DNA of 12,589 nucleotides from a virus, in UHGV virus genome UHGV-0247912. The stretch is one strand, 5' to 3'. Positions 1-11,857 of this stretch are shown one piece after another. The stretch's first letter is position 1. The number at the start of each line of letters is the position of its first letter. The notes under the pieces are model-generated. The model saw only the letters and a program-made list of their open reading frames with translations, ran no database searches and was not told the origin of the DNA. The position numbers and the translations under genes were made by a program.

Positions 1-1158
1 GAGATAGCTGATCGTGATGGCCTGTCAGCCAGGATAAGCCCAAAAGGGAAAATTACTTTCCAGTACCGTTACAGATTCAACGGTAAGCCAGTGCGAATGA
101 AGATCGGTGAATACGGGAAAATGAGTCTGAAAGACGCCCGCTATGCGGTGTCTGAATACAGGGAGTTGCTTACGAAAGGGAAGAATCCGGCACTGTGCGT
201 AAAGCAGGCCATAGCCTTTGAGCAGGGCAAGCGATCTATATCCGACGTAGTGGAAGACTATCTATCCCTGCCGAACGTCATTAAGCTGGTGGCATATAAA
301 GAAGTCAAAAGCGCATTGATGCGCCACGTAGTCAACAAGTACGGCGACTACATAGCTGACGACGTAACGACAAAACAGTGGATGGATATATTTGGCGAGA
401 TCACTGCGGCGGGTCACGCGGTTACGGCTGGTTTGATATTGAAGCGAATGAAAATCATCGTTAACAGCGCAATCAGGCGTGGGCTAATGACTAACACGGC
501 GATAAACAATATCCGTGTAGCTGACGTTGGCGAGCATTATGCGGTGGTGGAGCGTTACCTTTCATGTGAGGAGATAGGCCACTTCTGGCGCACGGTAGAC
601 AGTTCGCAGATCTATCCGCAGAACAAAATAGCCTTAAAGCTATTATTGCTAACCGGGTGCAGGGTTGGTGAATTGCAGAAAATGAGAAGGGAACACCTAG
701 ATCTGGACAACGGTGTATGGACCGTTCCGGCGGCGGTGGCGAAGACAAGAAGTGAAATCAGGCGGGGATTATCTGACTTGTCGATAAAAATGCTCAGGGA
801 GGTTTTAACCTCCCATGAGTATGATTATGTATTCCCGCCAGTGATTAACGGCGGCAACAGGCCAGTAAACGTATCAGTGATAAAAGTAGCTGCAATATTC
901 GTGCGTAAAAGGATGGGCGGTAAATCATGGTCCTGTCACGACCTCCGCAGGACGTGCCGGACACACCTTTCAGCTATAGGTGTTCCGGTACATATTGCAG
1001 AAAAGATCTTAGGCCATTCATTAAGGGGAATACTGGCGGTGTACGACAAATATGATTATCTTGATGAACAAAAGGAGGCACTAAATAAGTTTGCTGATTA
1101 TGTGTTATCTTTGGCTGACGTTAAACCAATCCGATCAAAGAACTGCATTACGTCCTGA
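1..1158 (+). CDS. int: tyrosine recombinase / phage integrase (P4-type); N-terminus lies upstream of the window
   Basis: Frame 1 is open from base 1 (EIADRDGLSARISPKGKITFQYRYRFNGKPVRMKIGEY...), typical integrase N-terminal domain. C-terminal catalytic region has HDLRRT, LGHS and a Tyr near the end (AVYDKYDYL), i.e. the R-H-R-Y pattern. Stop TGA at 1156-1158. Confidence 0.9.
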   Translation, partial: EIADRDGLSARISPKGKITFQYRYRFNGKPVRMKIGEYGKMSLKDARYAVSEYRELLTKGKNPALCVKQAIAFEQGKRSISDVVEDYLSLPNVIKLVAYKEVKSALMRHVVNKYGDYIADDVTTKQWMDIFGEITAAGHAVTAGLILKRMKIIVNSAIRRGLMTNTAINNIRVADVGEHYAVVERYLSCEEIGHFWRTVDSSQIYPQNKIALKLLLLTGCRVGELQKMRREHLDLDNGVWTVPAAVAKTRSEIRRGLSDLSIKMLREVLTSHEYDYVFPPVINGGNRPVNVSVIKVAAIFVRKRMGGKSWSCHDLRRTCRTHLSAIGVPVHIAEKILGHSLRGILAVYDKYDYLDEQKEALNKFADYVLSLADVKPIRSKNCITS

Positions 1159-2005: not shown

Positions 2006-2182
2006 TTACGCCACTGTTACATTGTCAACCTTAATAAAATATTCAGGATGATTTTCTATTTCGTGCTTAAAGTGCGCGTGACACAATCGCCACTCACGCG
2101 CCTGGTTGTGAAAGTAATAAACGTATTCGCCATCAACCTTATACAAAATGCCTGTAGGTTTAGCCATGTAATAACTAGCCAT
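2006..2182 (-). CDS. small hypothetical protein (59 aa), nin-region ORF
   Basis: Found by manual translation (below the ORF-track size cutoff): MASYYMAKPTGILYKVDGEYVYYFHNQAREWRLCHAHFKHEIENHPEYFIKVDNVTVA. ATG overlaps the NinB stop (TAATG), suggesting translational coupling. No family recognised. Confidence 0.35.
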   Translation of the reverse strand: MASYYMAKPTGILYKVDGEYVYYFHNQAREWRLCHAHFKHEIENHPEYFIKVDNVTVA

Positions 2183-2613
2183 TATTGCCCCCAGCGTTTT
2201 ATAAATTCCTCGTTTAATTTCGTATCACCTGACCATTGAACATTATGTTCAGCACCGAACGAGTAGATCAGTTCGATTAATTCGCTAAATTCCGCTTTAC
2301 TCATCCGGCTGGTTGATGTTCCCAGCACAACAAAGCCTGATTTGTCCAGGTTAGGGACAACGCCATATTTCTTAAGCCCGGCAGTGAATACCGCCTTCCA
2401 GTCTTCCGGCGACAGCCTCTTACCGTACCAATTAACCTGATCACTAATGTCGGTTAGCAACGCCCATAGAAGGCTATTTTGGCTTAGCGAGCGGGTTTTC
2501 TCCTGGATGGTGATTATCAGCGGGCTTTTGCTATCAGGCTGTATTTCCCTTATCTGCCTGATAGCATTTTCTTTCACGGCGTCGTTGACTATCTCAAATC
2601 TAATTTGCCTCAT
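2182..2613 (-). CDS. ninB: NinB-family recombination protein (lambda Orf/NinB-like)
   Basis: 143 aa; MRQIRFEIVNDAVKENAIRQIREIQPDSKSPLIITIQEKTRSLSQNSLLWALLTDIS follows the pattern of lambda NinB (MKKLTFEIRSP...VVTIQERNRSLDQNRKLWA...). Start overlaps upstream stop (ATGA). Confidence 0.85.
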   Translation of the reverse strand: MRQIRFEIVNDAVKENAIRQIREIQPDSKSPLIITIQEKTRSLSQNSLLWALLTDISDQVNWYGKRLSPEDWKAVFTAGLKKYGVVPNLDKSGFVVLGTSTSRMSKAEFSELIELIYSFGAEHNVQWSGDTKLNEEFIKRWGQ

Positions 2614-3626: not shown

Positions 3627-5042
3627 TTAAAAAGATGCGTTATTCTGATTGTTTCGTTGGTTAAATCGGCTTGTGCGATGATTCATGGACTGAATACATG
3701 CAGACGCTGCGCGGGCCTGGTCACAAGGGAGGATATTGCCGTTGTCATCAAACCGCTGGTAAACAGTGCCAGTTTTCCCGTGACGGTTTTTAGATACAAT
3801 TATTTCCATATATTCGCGTGCTACAGACTGTTCATCGTAGTAACCATCGCGGTACACCATGATGATCCTGTCTGCATCTTGCTCAAGGTTCCCTGAATCA
3901 CGAAGATCAGAATTGTTAGGACGCTTGTTCGGGCGCTCCTCAACGCGGCGGGACAACTGCGCCAGCGCCAACACTGGTACGCGCAATTCTTTCGCCATCA
4001 TCTTCAACGACCACGACAATTGCCCTACAGCGAGATCGTGACGTTCGGCCTTAGCCAGCTTCATCAACCCTATGTAGTCAATCATTACCATACCCATGCT
4101 GGGGTGTTCCTGTTTCATCCGTTCTACGGTGGCGCGCATTTCCTCAACCGTTAACTGCGAAGCGTCAACGATCCACACATCAAGGTTAGCAAGTGCGCTC
4201 ATTCCCTGGCCGACATGCGCCCAACCATCATCATCAAGTTTTACCGGATTGCGCAGGCAGTCAGTTGATAAATTACCAGCGCCAGCGATGGCACGTTCGG
4301 TCATCTGATCGAGTGACATCTCAAGCGTGAAGAACAAAACGCCAACACGCTGATCCTTGCTGCCAGGGTAAGGGCATTCAGCAGCAGCGCGGGCAATTGC
4401 CAGCGCCAACGCAGATTTACCAGACCCAGGACGTCCGGCGAGAAGCACCAAATCAGTAGCGTTAATGCCGCCTAACATTTCGTCGAGTGGTTCTATCCCC
4501 GTTTTGATGTTGTCAGAATTGACACCGCATTCCATGCGTTTGCTTAACACCTCCGTGTATTCCTGTACCGCATCGCGCAACAACACCGGAATGATCTTGT
4601 CTTTCGTTACCTTTAATTTTGAATACCGGGAATCAAAATCCTTCATCGTTTCTTTGACTACTTCAAGCGTCCCCGTTTCCAGTTTGTAGCGCATATCGTC
4701 GATGAGTTCCAACATCTGCCGCCGCTGGTGCTCTTCACGTAGTAGCTGTGCGTATCCCTTCAGGTTGGCAGCAGAAGGACACGATCGCGCCGTTTGCATC
4801 AGTGGTACAAAGTTTTCATTGCCAATCTCATCGCCAACCAATAACGCGTCTATAAGATTTCTGTTTCTGGCTTGCGCCCGGATAACTTCAAACGCACGTT
4901 TATAAAGCGGGATCGTGAACACTTCAGGATCAAGCGTGGCGAGAACATCTTGCGCGTTAGGAGTAAGGCCACCCAACAACAGCCCGCCGATAACTGACGC
5001 CTCACGTTCCTGCCGTAGTGAGTTTATTTGCTCAGTTACCAT
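3627..5042 (-). CDS. replicative DNA helicase, DnaB family
   Basis: 471 aa; Walker A GRPGSGKS, DnaB-type motifs (FFTLEMS, IIVSKNRHGKTG, RFDDNG); RBS GGAGGAAA 8 nt before the ATG at 5042. C-terminal tail is longer than in E. coli DnaB. Confidence 0.9.
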   Translation of the reverse strand: MVTEQINSLRQEREASVIGGLLLGGLTPNAQDVLATLDPEVFTIPLYKRAFEVIRAQARNRNLIDALLVGDEIGNENFVPLMQTARSCPSAANLKGYAQLLREEHQRRQMLELIDDMRYKLETGTLEVVKETMKDFDSRYSKLKVTKDKIIPVLLRDAVQEYTEVLSKRMECGVNSDNIKTGIEPLDEMLGGINATDLVLLAGRPGSGKSALALAIARAAAECPYPGSKDQRVGVLFFTLEMSLDQMTERAIAGAGNLSTDCLRNPVKLDDDGWAHVGQGMSALANLDVWIVDASQLTVEEMRATVERMKQEHPSMGMVMIDYIGLMKLAKAERHDLAVGQLSWSLKMMAKELRVPVLALAQLSRRVEERPNKRPNNSDLRDSGNLEQDADRIIMVYRDGYYDEQSVAREYMEIIVSKNRHGKTGTVYQRFDDNGNILPCDQARAASACIQSMNHRTSRFNQRNNQNNASF

Positions 5043-5060: not shown

Positions 5061-6179
5061 TTACAAAATGGAAAATTCAGGGTAATAAACAAAGCGCCCG
5101 ATCTCTCCATGATCCTGGCTGTAAATAATAACCGCCGCCAGGCGACGCGACCGCCAGCCGCCATTAGTCGAATAGGCATCCTTACCCGCTAACGTGCCGT
5201 GATACTCAACAACGCCAAGCGATGACTCGATCAGCCGTTGATGATGCCAGTGCCCGCAGTGGGCGTAAACAGCAGCAGACTTGCCGAAATCCTCGCGCCA
5301 GTCAGCTACGCAAGCAGACAATAAATTTTCTGGCTTTTTGATAGTGTGCCCGTGGTGGTAAGCAAGAAATGTTTTGCCGTACTGTGTGTGGTGGACGATA
5401 GCAGGGGACACATCAACCGTCACGCGCGGTTCATCTTCGTAAAAAGCCGCCAGCGCCGCACGTAGCCAAATCATGCCTGACTGATCGTGATTGCCTGATA
5501 ACACCTGGATTTCAACATCTTTATGATTTAACAACATCTTTCCTACCGCCCGCCGTACAGACCGGATCGCCACATAAACAAGTTTTGCGTAGCGACTATC
5601 CTGATCAAGAATATGCCCGCTTGTTGGCGTAACCGGGACCATACCATCAGAATGAAGCAGGTCACCACCGAGAAGTAAGACGGCTTTTTCAGACATCGGA
5701 GCAGCGCCAACGGCATAATCAAAGAAGTTATTTAGCACGCGTTCAGCGATCCCAGTGTCGTAGCTCTCGCCGCATTCAGCTTTATGGGCAAGCGCCCCGA
5801 TATGCAGATCAAACACAGGATAAAGGGCCAGGCTTTTTTGAAAATCAATTTCAGGCACTGGCACAGCCTCCGCGCGTGGTATTTCATCAGTGAAAGCGTC
5901 GCGGGCCGCTTCCATTAGCTGTTCCATTTCTTCGCGGTCACGGGCTGTTTTAATCCAGCGCATGATAACATTGCCGTTCTTATCCACTAGCAACGACTCA
6001 CCATTGACGCCAAAACCAGGCGCGCGGCGTGTTGATAATAAACCCCGTTTCGCCAGTTTTGCGCCCAGGCGTTCGACATTGCGTTTAGACATGCCGTACT
6101 TTTCAGCGATCTGTTTGTACGTTAATCCGTTGTTATATTCAGCGATCAATTGCTCATCACTGATTTTTCTTTGCGACAT
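5061..6179 (-). CDS. HTH domain + calcineurin-like metallophosphoesterase domain protein (372 aa)
   Basis: ATG at 6179 with GGAGGG RBS (the track start at 6203 is an alternative start codon). N-terminal HTH (LTYKQIAEKYGMSKRNVERLGAKLAKRGLL); phosphoesterase-type motifs FDLH, GGDLLHSDG, GNHD, HHGH, GHWHH. Confidence 0.7.
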   Translation of the reverse strand: MSQRKISDEQLIAEYNNGLTYKQIAEKYGMSKRNVERLGAKLAKRGLLSTRRAPGFGVNGESLLVDKNGNVIMRWIKTARDREEMEQLMEAARDAFTDEIPRAEAVPVPEIDFQKSLALYPVFDLHIGALAHKAECGESYDTGIAERVLNNFFDYAVGAAPMSEKAVLLLGGDLLHSDGMVPVTPTSGHILDQDSRYAKLVYVAIRSVRRAVGKMLLNHKDVEIQVLSGNHDQSGMIWLRAALAAFYEDEPRVTVDVSPAIVHHTQYGKTFLAYHHGHTIKKPENLLSACVADWREDFGKSAAVYAHCGHWHHQRLIESSLGVVEYHGTLAGKDAYSTNGGWRSRRLAAVIIYSQDHGEIGRFVYYPEFSIL

Positions 6180-6212
6180 AATGTTAATCCCTCCAGTTAA
6201 CAAAATGTATAC

Positions 6213-6944
6213 CTACTTACACGCAAAAAGTTCAGACACCCAAAGTTGACCCTTAGCAGTAAATAGTGATTGGACGTAACCTCCAGCCGAACATTTTACC
6301 ACTCCATAGCCTTTGTCTACGAACCACTGCTTGAACATACGCCCGCCGCGCTTAATTCTCGTATCGTACACGTCAACCTGTTCAAGTTTTTTGTTGAGTT
6401 GCGTAGCAGTCATACCCAAAGGCTTGGCAACCTGTGTAGCGTTGCGATGCTGTTCGTTTCTTACAATCGCATCACAGACAGCCGCTTTCGGTGCTAATTC
6501 CTTATTTTCCAGCGCCAGACGATCAATTTCTTTCTGTGCTAATAGTTTTTGTTCAACCTCATCAGCCCATGCGCGAGCCGCCGCCACCGGATCAGTGAAA
6601 TCCGGCAAAGCTGGCTGCCGTACCTGTTTTTCGAGTTCCTGCCAGCGATCGACAAGTCGCGCCGTAAATTCAGGGCAGTTTTGAGCAACGACAATTATAC
6701 TATCTCGCTTGCCCTGCTCGCCTTCAAAAACGTAGGCCTTATCTTTTACCTTGAATCCTAAGTTATTGATTCTTTCGAGAAACTGCAATGCAGGACGCCG
6801 GATTACACCTTTATCAGCAAGGCGTTCTATAGAAACAAGCATGTTATCGTGACGGAACTTATTAACTCCGTTCCACTTATTTAGAAAATCAACGATCTCA
6901 ATACTGTTCATCTTAACAGCATCAAACACCATTAATTCAGACAT
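6213..6944 (-). CDS. rha: Rha-family phage regulatory protein / antirepressor-like (Rha N-terminal domain + ANT/KilAC-like C-terminal domain)
   Basis: ATG at 6944 with GGAG RBS. N-terminus has SIEIVDFLNKWNGVNKFRHDNMLVSIERL (the RHDN signature of Rha); C-terminus has ATQVAKPLGMTATQLNKKLEQVDVYDTRIKRGGRMFKQWFVDKGYG. Confidence 0.7.
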   Translation of the reverse strand: MSELMVFDAVKMNSIEIVDFLNKWNGVNKFRHDNMLVSIERLADKGVIRRPALQFLERINNLGFKVKDKAYVFEGEQGKRDSIIVVAQNCPEFTARLVDRWQELEKQVRQPALPDFTDPVAAARAWADEVEQKLLAQKEIDRLALENKELAPKAAVCDAIVRNEQHRNATQVAKPLGMTATQLNKKLEQVDVYDTRIKRGGRMFKQWFVDKGYGVVKCSAGGYVQSLFTAKGQLWVSELFACK

Positions 6945-7076
6945 TGTAATTTCTCCGTAAAACGCGCTACAACGCAAAAATCCCACCGCGTAACCCGTTT
7001 GCACAGGTTGCAGTGTCTTATTGCGTTATAGACGCTCTCAGGTGGCTAATTTTTGATTTACAGGATGGTATGAAGG

Positions 7077-7178
7077 TTATAGATTGACCAGAAGGAACAA
7101 ACCGCCGAACAAAGCGACGTTAACGGCGATTGCAGCAGCGATGGCAAAAGCCAGGGCAAAAACGTGTTTACCGTCCAT
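7077..7178 (-). CDS. small hydrophobic single-helix peptide (33 aa)
   Basis: MDGKHVFALAFAIAAAIAVNVALFGGLFLLVNL; strong RBS GAGAGGA about 8 nt before the ATG at 7178; hand-translated codon by codon. It is the C-terminal part of track ORF 7077..7439. Confidence 0.45.
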   Translation of the reverse strand: MDGKHVFALAFAIAAAIAVNVALFGGLFLLVNL

Positions 7179-7311
7179 TTTGAAATCCTCTCTAAAACGC
7201 TCTCTAACGAGATAAATAGCTAAAGGTATGCAAGTGTAGCACTCAATGCTTTTTAGCTCGCTGGCGAGCTTGTTTTGCGGGTAATTTTGTGTTTTTGCGG
7301 ATCGTGTTTGG

Positions 7312-8364
7312 TCAAAGAGCGCCACATCGTGTATCACGTAGCGTTTTTGGTTTAAGCAGGAAATCAAGTGTCGCAGTGAAGCCATCGCCGAAGTAAAAAT
7401 CTGAAGCATTGTTTTTGAACGTTTCAAAGTAGGCGACAAAGCCGTTAATGCTTTTGTCTTTCAGGTAGTCAGTGAACGCATAAATCTTGCGTTCAAGATC
7501 CCGATCCAGTTCGGCAGGTGGCAACATGCCATCAAACGTGCTGTTAAATGCCTCCACTACGTCGGCAGCGTTTGCAGTGGCTGACAGTTTGCGCCATTTT
7601 TCAGCATCAGCCAGATACCCATCAAATTTAGTCACCCGGCAAATGTTTATAGGCTTAGGTGTTCCACCACGGCTACGCCATTGCGTTAAAGCCCACTCAA
7701 TCACTAATGTGATCTCATCCTCCGTATACGCTTTACGTGTTTTTGTTTCTGTCAGTAGTTCTACGAATGGCTTAGCATCACGACATTTACACCCTGCCTT
7801 TTCGTTGTAGAAGTCAAGGCAACGCAATGCCGCATCGCTTATCTGAAAGTCACCATCCTGATTAACTTCTTTTCTTTTTATATTTTTCTTTTCTTCTTCT
7901 GTTTCTTTTTCTTCTTCTACTTCTATTTCTAATTCATGACCCTTTCCTGACCCGGTCATGACCCTATCATGACCCTTTGGTGTTGGATTGATTAACTTTT
8001 CTAATTTTAATTGCTCCTTCGCTGTGTTTATGGCGGCCCTGTAAGCGCTTTTAGAAGTCATTGATTGGTCCAGCCTTTTCAATAACTTTAAACAAGTTAT
8101 GTGGCCTTGAGAACATTCAAACAAACCAATTTCGATGAAGTATTTCATCATTTCTTCTATACGTTTTTCAGTAGATCCGACGTTTCGCGCAATGATTCTC
8201 GCGTCATGTCGTAGGTCAAAAGTCAGATTGTGCTGATCTACGTCATAAGTTATTAGTTCGAGGCAATACCAATAAAGCCCGTACCCTTCCAGGCCATAAT
8301 CTAACAAAACGTTTTGAAGTTTTTCATCGCGGTTCGCATCGCTGTCATGCTTAAACCACTTCAT
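7312..8364 (-). CDS. replication initiation protein / replisome organizer (O-like, phage replisome-organizer N-terminal domain type)
   Basis: 350 aa; N-terminus MKWFKHDSDANRDEKLQNVLLDYGLEGYGLYWYCLELI matches the replisome-organizer N-terminal domain pattern; acidic/basic linker; RBS GGAGGG; lies directly downstream of the immunity region. Confidence 0.8.
   Translation of the reverse strand: MKWFKHDSDANRDEKLQNVLLDYGLEGYGLYWYCLELITYDVDQHNLTFDLRHDARIIARNVGSTEKRIEEMMKYFIEIGLFECSQGHITCLKLLKRLDQSMTSKSAYRAAINTAKEQLKLEKLINPTPKGHDRVMTGSGKGHELEIEVEEEKETEEEKKNIKRKEVNQDGDFQISDAALRCLDFYNEKAGCKCRDAKPFVELLTETKTRKAYTEDEITLVIEWALTQWRSRGGTPKPINICRVTKFDGYLADAEKWRKLSATANAADVVEAFNSTFDGMLPPAELDRDLERKIYAFTDYLKDKSINGFVAYFETFKNNASDFYFGDGFTATLDFLLKPKTLRDTRCGAL
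7861..7933. repeat. AT-rich homopyrimidine/homopurine tract next to the iterons (candidate DNA unwinding element)
   Basis: About 70 bp almost entirely C/T on the plus strand (cttcttttctttttatatttttcttttcttcttctg...); encodes the Glu/Lys-rich linker of the initiator. Confidence 0.5.
7934..7977. repeat. four tandem 11-bp iterons (TCATGACCCTT-like), candidate origin of replication inside the initiator gene
   Basis: Plus strand units: 7934-7944 tcatgaccctt, 7945-7955 tcctgacccgg, 7956-7966 tcatgacccta, 7967-7977 tcatgaccctt. Units 1 and 4 are identical; the period is one helical turn. Confidence 0.6.
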
Positions 8365-8367
8365 AGA

Positions 8368-8625
8368 TCATCCCTCCGGCAACATCACTACATAGACATC
8401 ACTGAATGCATCAAGACGACAAACAAATCCTTTATCCATTAACGCGGCGAAGGCATCATGTACCGTATGAACAGGAAGTTCACACATTGCGGCTACTTCT
8501 TTGCGTGATGCATCATGTACCCGTCCTTTGTTATCTGCCTTTTCAGCCAGAGCCATTAAGACAAGTTTTTGAATCGGGCTATTAAGTTTTACGTTCCATG
8601 CTTTACTAATCATGTTTATACTCAT
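8368..8625 (-). CDS. small HTH / winged-helix DNA-binding protein (85 aa), first gene of the rightward-type operon (Cro/CII position)
   Basis: ATG at 8625 with AGGAG RBS (track ORF 8368..8703 starts earlier without an RBS); KLVLMALAEKADNKGRVHDASRKEVAAMCELPVHTVHDAFAALMDKGFV looks like a winged-helix DNA-binding domain. Confidence 0.55.
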   Translation of the reverse strand: MSINMISKAWNVKLNSPIQKLVLMALAEKADNKGRVHDASRKEVAAMCELPVHTVHDAFAALMDKGFVCRLDAFSDVYVVMLPEG

Positions 8626-8733
8626 CGCATTTTCTCCTATGGTTAGAGTGAACGCGCGGGCGGGCATCCCATTAGCATTAGATAGCAGTGACTGACCGCT
8701 CAACAGATCCCGCCGTTGCGTGATATTTGTTTT

Positions 8734-8929: not shown

Positions 8930-9577
8930 ATGAAAACAAAATGGTATGACTTAGCAAAGCAGCTCATGCGGGCGCAGGGCATGAGCCAGGATTCACTCGC
9001 GGATCGTATGGGGATAACTAAAGGCGGCCTGTCACACTGGCTGAACGGTCGCCGAGAGCCAAATCTTGAAGATATTGCGCGGATTATGCGCGAGCTTGGT
9101 CGTCGGCAGTTTACTGTTACACATGATGGCATGGTCATTGATGATTCTGTTTCTAATACACTTCAGGCCGTGCCGCCGCGTGATTTAGGTAGTTACCCGG
9201 TTATTGACTGGAAGGACACAGTAAACAATATGGATGACGCAAGGCGTTCAGCATTACGACACGTTACGACTAGCGTTATTTGTTCAGATGACAGTTACTG
9301 GCTGGTTGCCAAAGGTGAATCAATGAACGCGCCGCAGGGGTTGAGCATCCCGGCGGGGACGATGATACTTGTGGACCCGCACGCGCCAGCTATTGACGGC
9401 AAACTGGTTATAGCCCAGCTTGAGGAAGGGCAGATACCGACGTTTAAACAGTTGATTATTGATGGAGGTCAAAGGCTTTTACGTTCGCTCAATCCGCTGT
9501 ATCCGCCAATCCCTATGAATCCAGAATCAAAAATTATAGGCGTGGTGGTTGATGCGAAGATCGTAAACCTGCCATAA
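8930..9577 (+). CDS. cI: cI-type phage repressor (N-terminal HTH, C-terminal LexA/S24 autopeptidase domain)
   Basis: 215 aa; HTH GMSQDSLADRMGITKGGLSHWLNG; C-terminus GESMNAP...TFKQLIIDGGQRLLRSLNPLYPPIP parallels lambda cI ([24 protein letters not shown]) including the catalytic Ser and Lys. Confidence 0.9.
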   Translation: MKTKWYDLAKQLMRAQGMSQDSLADRMGITKGGLSHWLNGRREPNLEDIARIMRELGRRQFTVTHDGMVIDDSVSNTLQAVPPRDLGSYPVIDWKDTVNNMDDARRSALRHVTTSVICSDDSYWLVAKGESMNAPQGLSIPAGTMILVDPHAPAIDGKLVIAQLEEGQIPTFKQLIIDGGQRLLRSLNPLYPPIPMNPESKIIGVVVDAKIVNLP

Positions 9578-9582
9578 ACATT

Positions 9583-9607
9583 AGCCGCCGAATGGCGGCT
9601 TTTCTTT
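9583..9607 (+). terminator. rho-independent terminator after the repressor gene
   Basis: AGCCGCC-gaat-GGCGGCT (7-bp GC-rich stem) followed by TTTCTTT, 6 nt after the stop codon. Confidence 0.65.
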
Positions 9608-10398: not shown

Positions 10399-10521
10399 AT
10401 GGTTATTCAGGCGCTTCAATTCAAACTGGCAGTAGCGGAAATGCTTCACGATGCCGAAATGTGGAGCGCCGCGAATAAAGCCTTATACATAGTGTTAACA
10501 GCACGGGAGATTAAATGGTGA
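10399..10521 (+). CDS. small hypothetical protein (40 aa), translationally coupled to erf (Arf-like position)
   Basis: Manual translation: MVIQALQFKLAVAEMLHDAEMWSAANKALYIVLTAREIKW. RBS GGAGGTGA before the ATG at 10399; its stop overlaps the erf start (ATGGTGA). Confidence 0.45.
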   Translation: MVIQALQFKLAVAEMLHDAEMWSAANKALYIVLTAREIKW

Positions 10522-11159
10522 AAACAGAGTTACATAAAAAGCTATGGACGATTCAGCAAACGCTGAACGCGCCGAAAAATCAGCGTAATAATTTTGGTGG
10601 ATATAATTACAGGTCGGCGGAGGATATTTTAGAGGCGGTTAAACCACTGCTTCAAAGTATTACGCTGACTGTAAGCGATGAAATTGTCCTGATCGGCAAT
10701 CGCTATTATGTGAAAGCTACGGCGACGCTAAGCGACGGTGAAGACGAAATAGCGGTAACGGCTTACGCCAGGGAAGAAGAAAGCAAGAAGGGAATGGACG
10801 CAAGCCAGCTAACAGGTGCGACATCAAGTTACGCGCGAAAATATGCTTTGAACGGTTTATTCTGCATTGATGATGCGCGAGATCCTGATACTGACGCATA
10901 CGCTAAGCAGACAGGCCAGCAGCCTCGCCAGCAGAAAAACCCACCAAAACAACAACCACAGCAGCAGAAAGCGCCGCCAAATCCTGATGAAGTATTAGCA
11001 CGTTTCTGTGATGCAGCAGCGAAAGCGCAGGACGCTAACAAGCTGCGTGAAATATTTGGCAAATGCTGGAAATTACTACCGGAAGGATCGGAACATCGAA
11101 TCAAGGCAAAAGATGTTTATGACATCCGGGTAGCAGAGCTTAACGGGGAGATGGGTTAA
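10515..11159 (+). CDS. erf: Erf-family single-strand annealing recombination protein
   Basis: 214 aa; NFGGYNYRSAEDILEAVKPLL...GNRYYVKATATLSDGE...AREEESKKGMDASQLTGATSSYARKYALNGLFCIDDARDPD matches the conserved Erf core (P22 Erf-like); Q/P-rich linker. Confidence 0.9.
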   Translation: MVKTELHKKLWTIQQTLNAPKNQRNNFGGYNYRSAEDILEAVKPLLQSITLTVSDEIVLIGNRYYVKATATLSDGEDEIAVTAYAREEESKKGMDASQLTGATSSYARKYALNGLFCIDDARDPDTDAYAKQTGQQPRQQKNPPKQQPQQQKAPPNPDEVLARFCDAAAKAQDANKLREIFGKCWKLLPEGSEHRIKAKDVYDIRVAELNGEMG

Positions 11160-11563
11160 TGAGTTTAAATTCAATCACGCTGGGCGGGAATATCGGTAAT
11201 GATATGGAGGTTCGCTACACACAAAACGGGAAAGCGATTGGTAGTTTTCCGTTAGCTGTAACGAATGGCTACGGCGATAATAAGCGGACAATGTGGGTCA
11301 CTTGCCTGGTATTTGGTGAGCGTGCGGAAAAATTAGCGCCACATATCCGCAAGGGTGGAAAAATAGTGGTAAGCGGTCGCCTGGATGTTCGGCAATATGA
11401 CCGGAACGACGGCACGAAGGGAACGGCGGTAGAAGTGGCGGTTAACGAATTTGAATTCATGAACGTTAACCAACAAGGCCAGCAGCAGAAAGCGCCTCCG
11501 CAGCAGCAGAATAATAACGGGAATAATCCGCCGATGGACTTTGATGACGATATCCCGTTTTGA
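11159..11563 (+). CDS. ssb: single-stranded DNA-binding protein (short phage SSB)
   Basis: 134 aa; OB-fold N-terminus (ITLGGNIGNDMEVRYTQNGKA...), Q/N/P-rich linker and acidic C-terminal tip DFDDDIPF; start overlaps the erf stop (TAATG). Confidence 0.9.
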   Translation: MSLNSITLGGNIGNDMEVRYTQNGKAIGSFPLAVTNGYGDNKRTMWVTCLVFGERAEKLAPHIRKGGKIVVSGRLDVRQYDRNDGTKGTAVEVAVNEFEFMNVNQQGQQQKAPPQQQNNNGNNPPMDFDDDIPF

Positions 11564-11578
11564 TCCAATAGGTTAGCG

Positions 11579-11857
11579 ATGGTTGATTATCTAAAACCGC
11601 CACCACCGCCACGAACAAAAGAGCAAGTATTAAAAGAAGCCCGTGATCAAATCGATCGCGGGCTTTTTTTATGCGGCACGGCAGCGGAACGGATGGCAAA
11701 AAGATTTAGTGACCTGTACGCAAAACAAATATGGTTCGACAACTGGCAGGCAAGTTTTTATCCGCTGCAAAGAAAACCGGATATGCACTGGCCTGAATAT
11801 GTCGATCCACGTATGCGCAAATATCGCGGGCGTATGGGCCAGGTCATTAACGATTAA
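11579..11857 (+). CDS. hypothetical protein (92 aa), proline tract near the N-terminus
   Basis: Continuous with the erf-ssb operon; stop 12 nt before the next gene; weak RBS. No family recognised. Confidence 0.45.
   Translation: MVDYLKPPPPPRTKEQVLKEARDQIDRGLFLCGTAAERMAKRFSDLYAKQIWFDNWQASFYPLQRKPDMHWPEYVDPRMRKYRGRMGQVIND

Follow-up and report, generated by a model that had tools for sequence, protein, structure and literature searches.

A conserved gene for a predicted 33-residue transmembrane peptide in an exchangeable cassette of a coliphage early operon

We analyzed a 12,589-nucleotide stretch of the virus genome UHGV-0247912 (this whole stretch is called the window below), and in particular a short open reading frame (ORF) that lies on its minus strand downstream of a replication gene. 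Judged by its substitution pattern among relatives, this ORF is a genuine protein-coding gene under purifying selection, and its product represents a new, unannotated family of small phage-encoded transmembrane peptides. With slightly better than even confidence, we read that product as a 33-residue single-pass inner-membrane peptide of the lytic phase that acts in the membrane, either on a host protein or by self-association. Its coding status, conservation, hydrophobic helix and operon position, the paralogy of the leaders on either side of it and the lack of conservation of nearby antisense signals are each supported directly by the comparisons that follow. The gene and its ribosome-binding site (RBS) are as follows.

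7077..7178, minus strand: peptide gene of 33 codons, product MDGKHVFALAFAIAAAIAVNVALFGGLFLLVNL (ATG at 7178-7176, TAA at 7079-7077; read from the sequence)
7186..7193, minus strand: Shine-Dalgarno sequence AGAGAGGA, 7 nt upstream of the peptide ATG (read from the sequence)

The first-pass annotation of this DNA had described a 33-amino-acid hydrophobic peptide ORF with a strong RBS behind a 133-bp spacer, and had called the product a single transmembrane-helix peptide with the size and composition of type I toxins. These descriptions hold up: the ORF is present at 7077-7178 (-), the spacer measures 133 nt from the replication-gene stop (7312) to the peptide ATG, the AGAGAGGA block has the lowest nucleotide diversity in that spacer (pi 0.063 vs 0.198 at ORF third positions), and the 33-aa product has a constant length, is under purifying selection and is predicted to form one very hydrophobic helix.

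ORF length by itself is at chance level, as the surrounding 2.5 kb is overlapped by 24 ORFs that reach 25 aa or more and a 33-codon ORF is not above expectation; we take the ORF to be real because it is conserved. In an initial alignment of eight sequences the start and stop codons are shared, there are no indels, and the variable columns are distributed 4/5/19 over the three codon positions. This set was later enlarged with 32 IMG/VR contigs and divergent prophages to 43 copies of the peptide gene at 42 loci, which comprise 25 unique ORF sequences (34 unique sequences in the spacer comparison). All 43 copies have exactly 33 codons and zero indels, and the noncoding DNA that flanks them does have indels. 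Among the 25 unique ORFs the variable columns by codon position are 7/10/21, and the ratio of nonsynonymous to synonymous polymorphism (pN/pS) is 0.18 in the peptide frame vs 2.3 and 1.5 in the other two sense frames. Purifying selection, a conserved start, stop and RBS and the absence of indels are the marks of a protein-coding small ORF, and all are found here.

Protein databases give the same picture. A search with a 43-aa read-through extension of the peptide as query returned 21 clusters, every one of them exactly 33 aa long and 78-97% identical, and an exhaustive hidden Markov model search of 1.84 billion representatives found only the peptide family itself, P0022 (an N-terminally over-extended call) and the divergent P0023 (see below). 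The ORF is labeled "hypothetical protein" in PHANOTATE-based phage records, and was left unannotated by PGAP in all 35 related E. coli prophages and in the mEp021 GenBank record. Annotation routinely passes over small membrane peptides, and this one belongs to no Pfam, PHROG or NCBIfam family. The published mass spectrometry of phage mEp021 covers virion proteins only (PMC11893012).

The product starts with a short, presumably cytoplasmic stretch (MDGKH), continues as a helix of about 26 residues and ends in two tail residues. AlphaFold2, run with the family alignment, predicts a single helix from residue 3 to residue 31 (pLDDT 96), and over residues 6-31 the Kyte-Doolittle hydropathy averages 2.54. 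The N-terminal Lys and His, read by the positive-inside rule, suggest an N-in, C-out topology. Twelve positions are invariant even when P0023 is included (M1, K4, F7, F11, I17, V19, N20, L23, F24, G25, L27 and L30), and conservation reaches 90% or more at G26 and P33, with L33 replacing P33 in the window and in two relatives (L028 and L040). The residues V6, L9, I13, A16, N20, L23, L27 and L30 follow a 3-4 heptad spacing; such spacing with a buried polar Asn typically drives association of transmembrane helices. Searches of Pfam, PHROG, NCBIfam and PADLOC found no family for the peptide, and those of Pfam, NCBIfam and PADLOC were empty up to E <= 10 apart from one sub-threshold match to YldA (E 0.038, 14 bits vs a 45-bit cut-off) that was made by the divergent homolog only. 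The peptide sequence, searched for as a literal string, turned up in no paper.

That divergent homolog, P0023 (MDNKRMFALVFAFVMAIVVNAILFGGLFMLVNP), is also 33 aa long and is 64% identical to the window peptide. It is encoded on a 16.6-kb metagenomic contig (L044) that carries many small genes on the same strand and whose DNA matches only the ~136-kb rV5-like (Vequintavirinae) coliphages. The two ORFs have 67% nucleotide identity, with 13 identical, 8 synonymous and 12 nonsynonymous codon pairs, and they alone are common to the two DNAs: the flanks show background similarity, the spacer is not shared, and the gene in L044 has its own RBS and its own terminator with an 11-bp stem, with no counterpart of the structured element that follows the window gene (leader B, below). 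A protein that is kept while its flanks are unrelated strongly indicates that selection acts on the peptide itself. The rV5-like contigs also have a second called ORF of exactly 33 aa, which lies about 340 nt upstream of the homolog (4560-4661 in L044 and 847-948 in L045).

The family was seen only in phages and prophages of E. coli, in searches of which tblastn is blind to this peptide and the genome scan is of limited reach. The low-complexity filter of tblastn masks the peptide, and with it phage records gave one match at E = 7 and plasmid records none; among species-representative genomes the exact DNA pattern had 0 matches, and 136 pattern matches were unconfirmed by tblastn.

Seven E. 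coli phages of the mEp021/mEpimmI group (mEp515, mEp554, mEp044, mEp010, mEp013, mEp021 and MagusPhagus) match the region with 84-94% identity, and it is also similar to the 35 prophages, which were found among 5,426 complete E. coli genomes. On sequence grounds, the window is from an mEpimmI-group (mEp021-like) E. coli temperate phage. Members of this group are temperate siphoviruses, non-lambdoid and Nus-dependent, that have a CI-like repressor and an N-like antiterminator, and their reported prevalence in a human fecal-sample collection equals that of lambdoid phages (PMC11893012). The peptide gene is part of the repressor-controlled early operon and lies there between the following two genes, which like all other genes of the window were assigned by family scans (PHROG, Pfam).

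7312-8364, minus strand: replication initiator, the upstream gene of the operon (PHROG 20981, 428 and 345; Pfam PF14297)
6213-6944, minus strand: Ant/KilAC-domain protein, the downstream gene of the operon (PHROG 63; Pfam PF03374)

The initiator has a Lin1244-like N-terminal domain and a phage replication-protein C-terminal domain, and is annotated in relatives as "DNA replication protein O" or "putative replication protein". Promoters and terminators were sought with simple consensus scans, and that for sigma-70-like promoters detected none on the sense (minus) strand between 6700 and 7700. With no promoter-like site of its own, the peptide gene looks to be co-transcribed with the replication gene, and from this co-transcription we infer that it is silent in lysogens.

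Two paralogous leaders of about 110 nt bracket a 235-bp exchangeable cassette, and the spacer ahead of the peptide gene is one of them.

7179..7288, minus strand: leader A, an intercistronic leader of ~110 nt upstream of the peptide gene that makes up most of the spacer; paralog of leader B
6945..7053, minus strand: leader B, a structured element of ~110 nt between the peptide gene and the next gene, which ends in the RBS of that gene

Leader A begins with the motif AAAATTACCCGC at 7288-7277, and the corresponding 12-mer AAAATTAsCCrC, a motif derived post hoc, occurs at exactly two sites in the window, 7288-7277 and 7053-7042, with the same spacing. At their 3' ends the leaders share a 27-nt repeat that includes the RBS (7209-7183 vs 6974-6948, 74% identical and 235 nt apart; repeat family D3), and their global alignment scores 86 vs 35 +/- 8 (maximum 62) for 500 dinucleotide shuffles. 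Most relatives examined have the two copies 234-236 nt apart, and in two of them (L009 and L046) one 3' variant is found in both copies. Of the two leaders, A resembles a degenerate version of B. Leader B has a predicted fold of -43.7 kcal/mol (z -4.4; 0 of 200 shuffles were as good), and no other noncoding stretch is as conserved as its end blocks (pi 0.045 and 0.081). Two models of this fold, a long hairpin and a Y-shape, are both 82-90% paired in register vs about 40% when slid, with weak covariation. Leader B has no Rfam match; it may be a terminator or an RNase III-type RNA-processing site. An antitermination paper by Valencia-Toxqui from 2023 reportedly mapped terminators t1-t5.

Several loci show the cassette being exchanged or rearranged. 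In two prophages (L010 and L011, of E. coli KKa019 and PAR; positions 2301-2534) the slot of the peptide is taken by a 77-aa MarR-like winged-helix, helix-turn-helix (HTH) ORF, annotated by PGAP at its full 77 aa in L011 and at 49 aa in L010, with recognizable leaders on either side and its stop codon within the 5' motif of leader B, which is kept where the peptide is replaced. In L038 and L009 the cassette is joined to different upstream sequences, and the gene that follows leader B differs (it is not Ant/KilAC) in mEp021, mEp013, mEp010, MagusPhagus and L009. Finally, contig L019 (IMGVR_UViG_3300045988_062505) has at 6760-7244 a tandem duplication of the 235-bp leader-plus-peptide unit that is joined exactly at the AAAATTAGCCAC 5' motif. 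L019 belongs to a lineage of three contigs from one metagenome (with L013 and L027) in which the peptide ATG is changed to ATT and the changes A8T and L9Q are present; its duplication could be an unequal crossover, decay or an assembly artefact. The paired-leader cassette is a concrete example of accessory-gene swapping in a phage early operon.

What we propose for the peptide concerns its topology, the timing of its expression, its action within the membrane and a host target, and these parts are predictions. Most likely it would be made from the replication-protein transcript, only during lytic growth or induction, and would insert N-in into the inner membrane. Its Asn20/Gly25 face would there make a helix-helix contact with a host inner-membrane protein or mediate self-association, and its role would be an accessory and host-directed one, for example to exclude superinfecting phages or to modulate the envelope, cell division or a transporter. 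With almost no residues outside the bilayer and with invariant residues in the C-terminal half of the helix, the peptide most likely acts inside the membrane, and its occurrence in two unrelated phage types that have the same host points to a host target rather than a phage partner.

Peptides of similar build are known from cells. AcrZ, MgtS, MgrB, KdpF and CydX (of which phospholamban is the eukaryotic archetype) have 30-50 aa, one transmembrane helix and hardly any soluble part, and peptides of the AcrZ/MgtS type bind a larger membrane protein via polar or small residues in that helix. The window peptide is like the AcrZ/MgtS-type regulators in having one helix in which Asn20 and Gly25/26 are invariant or nearly so; unlike them, it is phage-encoded and predicted to be expressed early. 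Among phage proteins, T4 Imm, HK97 gp15 and P22 SieA are early membrane proteins that function in superinfection exclusion or envelope remodeling, and LysM, a 37-aa single-gene lysis peptide of a single-stranded RNA phage, blocks MurJ. The peptide shares with such exclusion and lysis proteins its phage origin and its transmembrane nature, and its accessory, exchangeable slot and its sharing between phages fit a host-directed gene; it is shorter than T4 Imm, HK97 gp15 and P22 SieA, and neither sequence similarity to them nor a PHROGs match was found.

Several points weigh against this proposal. The Asn20/heptad face is taken to be a helix interface from its sequence pattern only, and the family-library searches found no homolog of known function. 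A weak or non-canonical promoter in leader A, which a simple scan would miss, may allow expression in lysogens. The peptide is dispensable in at least two related prophages (L010 and L011) that conserve its flanks, and the ATT start with A8T and L9Q in the L013/L019/L027 lineage may be decay of the gene.

A bolder form of the proposal, which we offer as a tentative possibility and think more probably wrong than right, is that the peptide founds a family of phage intramembrane effectors that has moved horizontally between mEpimmI temperate siphoviruses and lytic rV5-like myoviruses, and that its Asn20/Gly25 heptad face docks onto one specific E. coli inner-membrane protein for an early superinfection block or a rewiring of the envelope. 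If this were true, the targets of such intramembrane effectors might be, for example, a DNA-entry component, the divisome or a transporter. Purifying selection and sharing by unrelated coliphages in any case mark the peptide as a candidate, cheap to study and tractable, for a phage-host interaction in the membrane that would be new.

The alternative that survives best, though we consider it unlikely, is that the peptide damages the membrane by forming pores or depolarizing it, in the manner of holins or of Hok and TisB, with no RNA antitoxin and with control by repression of the early operon; such damage would help to time lysis, to shut off host metabolism or to bring about abortive infection. 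A very hydrophobic helix with an invariant Asn20, Gly25/Gly26 and a heptad face is compatible with the self-association that this would require, and the peptide is present in phages of both the temperate and the lytic type. There is, however, no lysis cassette nearby, the neighbors being replication and anti-repressor genes (with the exonuclease-like and helicase genes beyond), and a pore-former made early would be expected to harm replication of the phage. The helix has no charged or amphipathic residues except Asn20, the C-terminus is Asn-Leu or Asn-Pro with no charged tail of the kind found in holins and antiholins, and the peptide matches no holin or toxin family.

Small early-operon products that harm the host when over-expressed are known among phages, and include the Kil proteins and the Ipe protein of mEp021. 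Lambda Kil is a soluble 47-aa inhibitor of FtsZ with no transmembrane helix, and the suggestion in the first-pass annotation that the peptide is Kil-like found no backing: it has no sequence similarity to Kil families in Pfam, even at E <= 10, or in PHROG. Toxic Ipe is a different ORF of 72-83 aa (PMC6379469), and identity of the 33-aa peptide with Ipe was rejected on size. The "Kil-like protein" of the mEpimmI paper could not be traced to a gene.

We regard as improbable the idea that the ORF is a cis-acting leader peptide, whose translation, or pausing at Asn-Pro-stop, would control leader B and the variable genes downstream. The ORF does end 24 nt before the strongly structured, conserved leader B (z -4.4), and the residue before its stop codon, P33, is at least 90% conserved; a C-terminal Pro before a stop codon slows termination in E. 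coli, as in TnaC. The amino-acid conservation nevertheless extends along the entire helix (pN/pS 0.18) rather than being confined to a C-terminal arrest motif, and the window peptide itself has L33. In a leader-peptide attenuator the stop codon lies within a ribosome footprint of the RNA structure; here the first stem of leader B (near 7048) is about 29 nt past the stop codon at 7079-7077, outside the footprint of a terminating ribosome. Moreover, the L044 gene is on its own, with an ordinary terminator rather than leader B behind it, and in L010 and L011 leader B is kept behind the unrelated 77-aa ORF.

Less probable still is a type I toxin-antitoxin module, the reading put forward in the first-pass annotation, in which a membrane toxin would be blocked by a cis-encoded antisense RNA that starts downstream of the ORF and ends at 7255-7270. 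Two features of the window bear on it.

7255..7270, plus strand: hairpin AGCTCG-CTGG-CGAGCT, followed by TGTTTTG; a window-specific perfect form of a degenerate inverted repeat
7057..7085, plus strand: antisense promoter-like site TTTACA-17-TAGATT (1 found vs 1.6 +/- 1.4 expected)

Type I toxins (Hok/Gef, Ldr, TisB, IbsC, ShoB, DinQ and ZorO) resemble the peptide in being small (19-50 aa), hydrophobic, single-helix and missed by annotation, and in the window the promoter-like site (7057-7085) and the hairpin with its T-run (7255-7277) bracket a potential antisense RNA of about 185 nt that would cover the ORF and its RBS. The plus-strand perfect hairpin and the TGTTTTG after it are indeed present in the sequence as had been reported, and the hairpin occupies the position of hairpin 1 of leader B. 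Its role as a terminator of an antisense RNA fares badly when relatives are compared. All six of its base pairs can form in only one of the 34 unique sequences, the window, and four or five of the six in the other 33 (variants include ACCTCA/CGAGCT, AGCTCA/CGAGCT and AGCTCG/CGAGAT, among others), with no compensatory double changes among the 34; four of them also have a degraded antisense T-run. The hairpin is unused in the minimum-free-energy fold of either strand of the spacer, neither of which is significant against shuffles (z -0.5 and +0.5), and the Shine-Dalgarno sequence is unpaired in the sense-strand fold, just 3' of the last helix. Nucleotide diversity across the spacer is 0.10-0.27, near that of ORF third positions (0.198) except in the RBS (0.063), and Rfam has no family match in the spacer and peptide region. 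Terminator-like sites are in any case about as frequent as expected from shuffles, 3 vs 1.4 +/- 1.3 in 1 kb and 8 vs 5.0 +/- 2.6 in 4 kb. The antisense -10 hexamer TAGATT requires CTA (L33) as codon 33, a variant seen in just 3 of the 34 unique sequences; most of the others have TGGATT, which is without the key A.

The antisense promoter-like site and the hairpin are thus chance-level consensus matches, and of the defining features of type I systems only the small hydrophobic membrane peptide (33 aa, helix 3-31) is found. In contrast to known type I toxins, there is here no conserved antisense RNA with its promoter and terminator, and no autonomous unit with a structured 5' untranslated region (no sense promoter was detected and the spacer fold has z -0.5), the putative toxin gene being instead inside a phage early operon. 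The ORF is the only thing that the L044 homolog has in common with the window, and there is no match, even at E <= 10, to a described toxin family (Hok/Gef, Ldr, TisB, Ibs, ShoB or Fst) in Pfam, NCBIfam or PADLOC. With these other defining features tested and not found, the toxin-antitoxin reading is unsupported, and the antisense interpretation of the hairpin appears to be an artefact of viewing a single sequence, which makes it a useful negative result. Absence of the peptide from relatives with the region otherwise conserved, which the first-pass annotation had held would count against its reading, is seen in part: L010 and L011 lack the peptide, and the 33-codon ORF is kept in 42 loci.

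It is also very improbable that the ORF has no function, being either an accidental frame in conserved noncoding DNA or a shadow of a true gene in the 43-aa ORF at 7084-7215 (+): short ORFs are plentiful in the region, PGAP (in the 35 prophages) and the mEp021 GenBank record skip this one, and the plus-strand frame that shares its wobble positions and holds the 43-aa ORF also has a low pN/pS (0.31), but the sense frame has the lower value together with a conserved ATG and Shine-Dalgarno sequence and a fixed length, and without a coding function it would be hard to account for a protein that is conserved in L044 although the DNA has diverged and the flanks are unrelated. The antisense ORF appears to be a by-product, because its TTG start is lost in 7 of 32 unique sequences and it is truncated or frameshifted in others.

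The other genes assigned in the window are as follows.

91-1158, plus strand: integrase
2182-2613, minus strand: NinB
3627-5042, minus strand: DnaB-like helicase
5061-6203, minus strand: exonuclease-like protein
8368-8703, minus strand: small HTH protein
8930-9577, plus strand: divergent LexA/CI-type repressor
10515-11159, plus strand: Erf
11159-11563, plus strand: SSB

Four copies of TCATGACCC/TCCTGACCC with 11-bp spacing (repeat family D2) lie at 7934-7975, inside the replication gene, and adjoin a pyrimidine- and AT-rich tract at 7859-7929 with a GC fraction of 0.29. These D2 iterons and AT-rich unwinding element, in the linker-coding part of the initiator gene, look like a phage origin; such a candidate origin inside the initiator gene would be placed as lambda ori is within gene O. 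We also weighed an origin in the spacer but rejected it, as the iterons and the AT-rich tract are inside the replication gene. A boxA-like sequence, GCGCTCTTTGACCAA (compare boxA, CGCTCTTTAACAA), at 7312-7327 (-) spans the conserved last codons and stop of the replication gene; no boxB-like hairpin carrying an A-rich loop comes after it, the group's published nut sites lie elsewhere, and the resemblance is probably coincidental.

Directly 3' of the CI-like repressor gene, at 9583-9600 (+), is a strong terminator, AGCCGCCGAATGGCGGCT followed by TTTCTTT, and an equivalent post-repressor terminator is annotated in mEp021 (TERM_1) and in mEp515 (T1). In the operon on the Erf/SSB side, positions 11609-11672 (+) match the Rfam family Thr_leader with 28.8 bits vs a gathering score of 55 (E 0.05), which is most likely a chance match.

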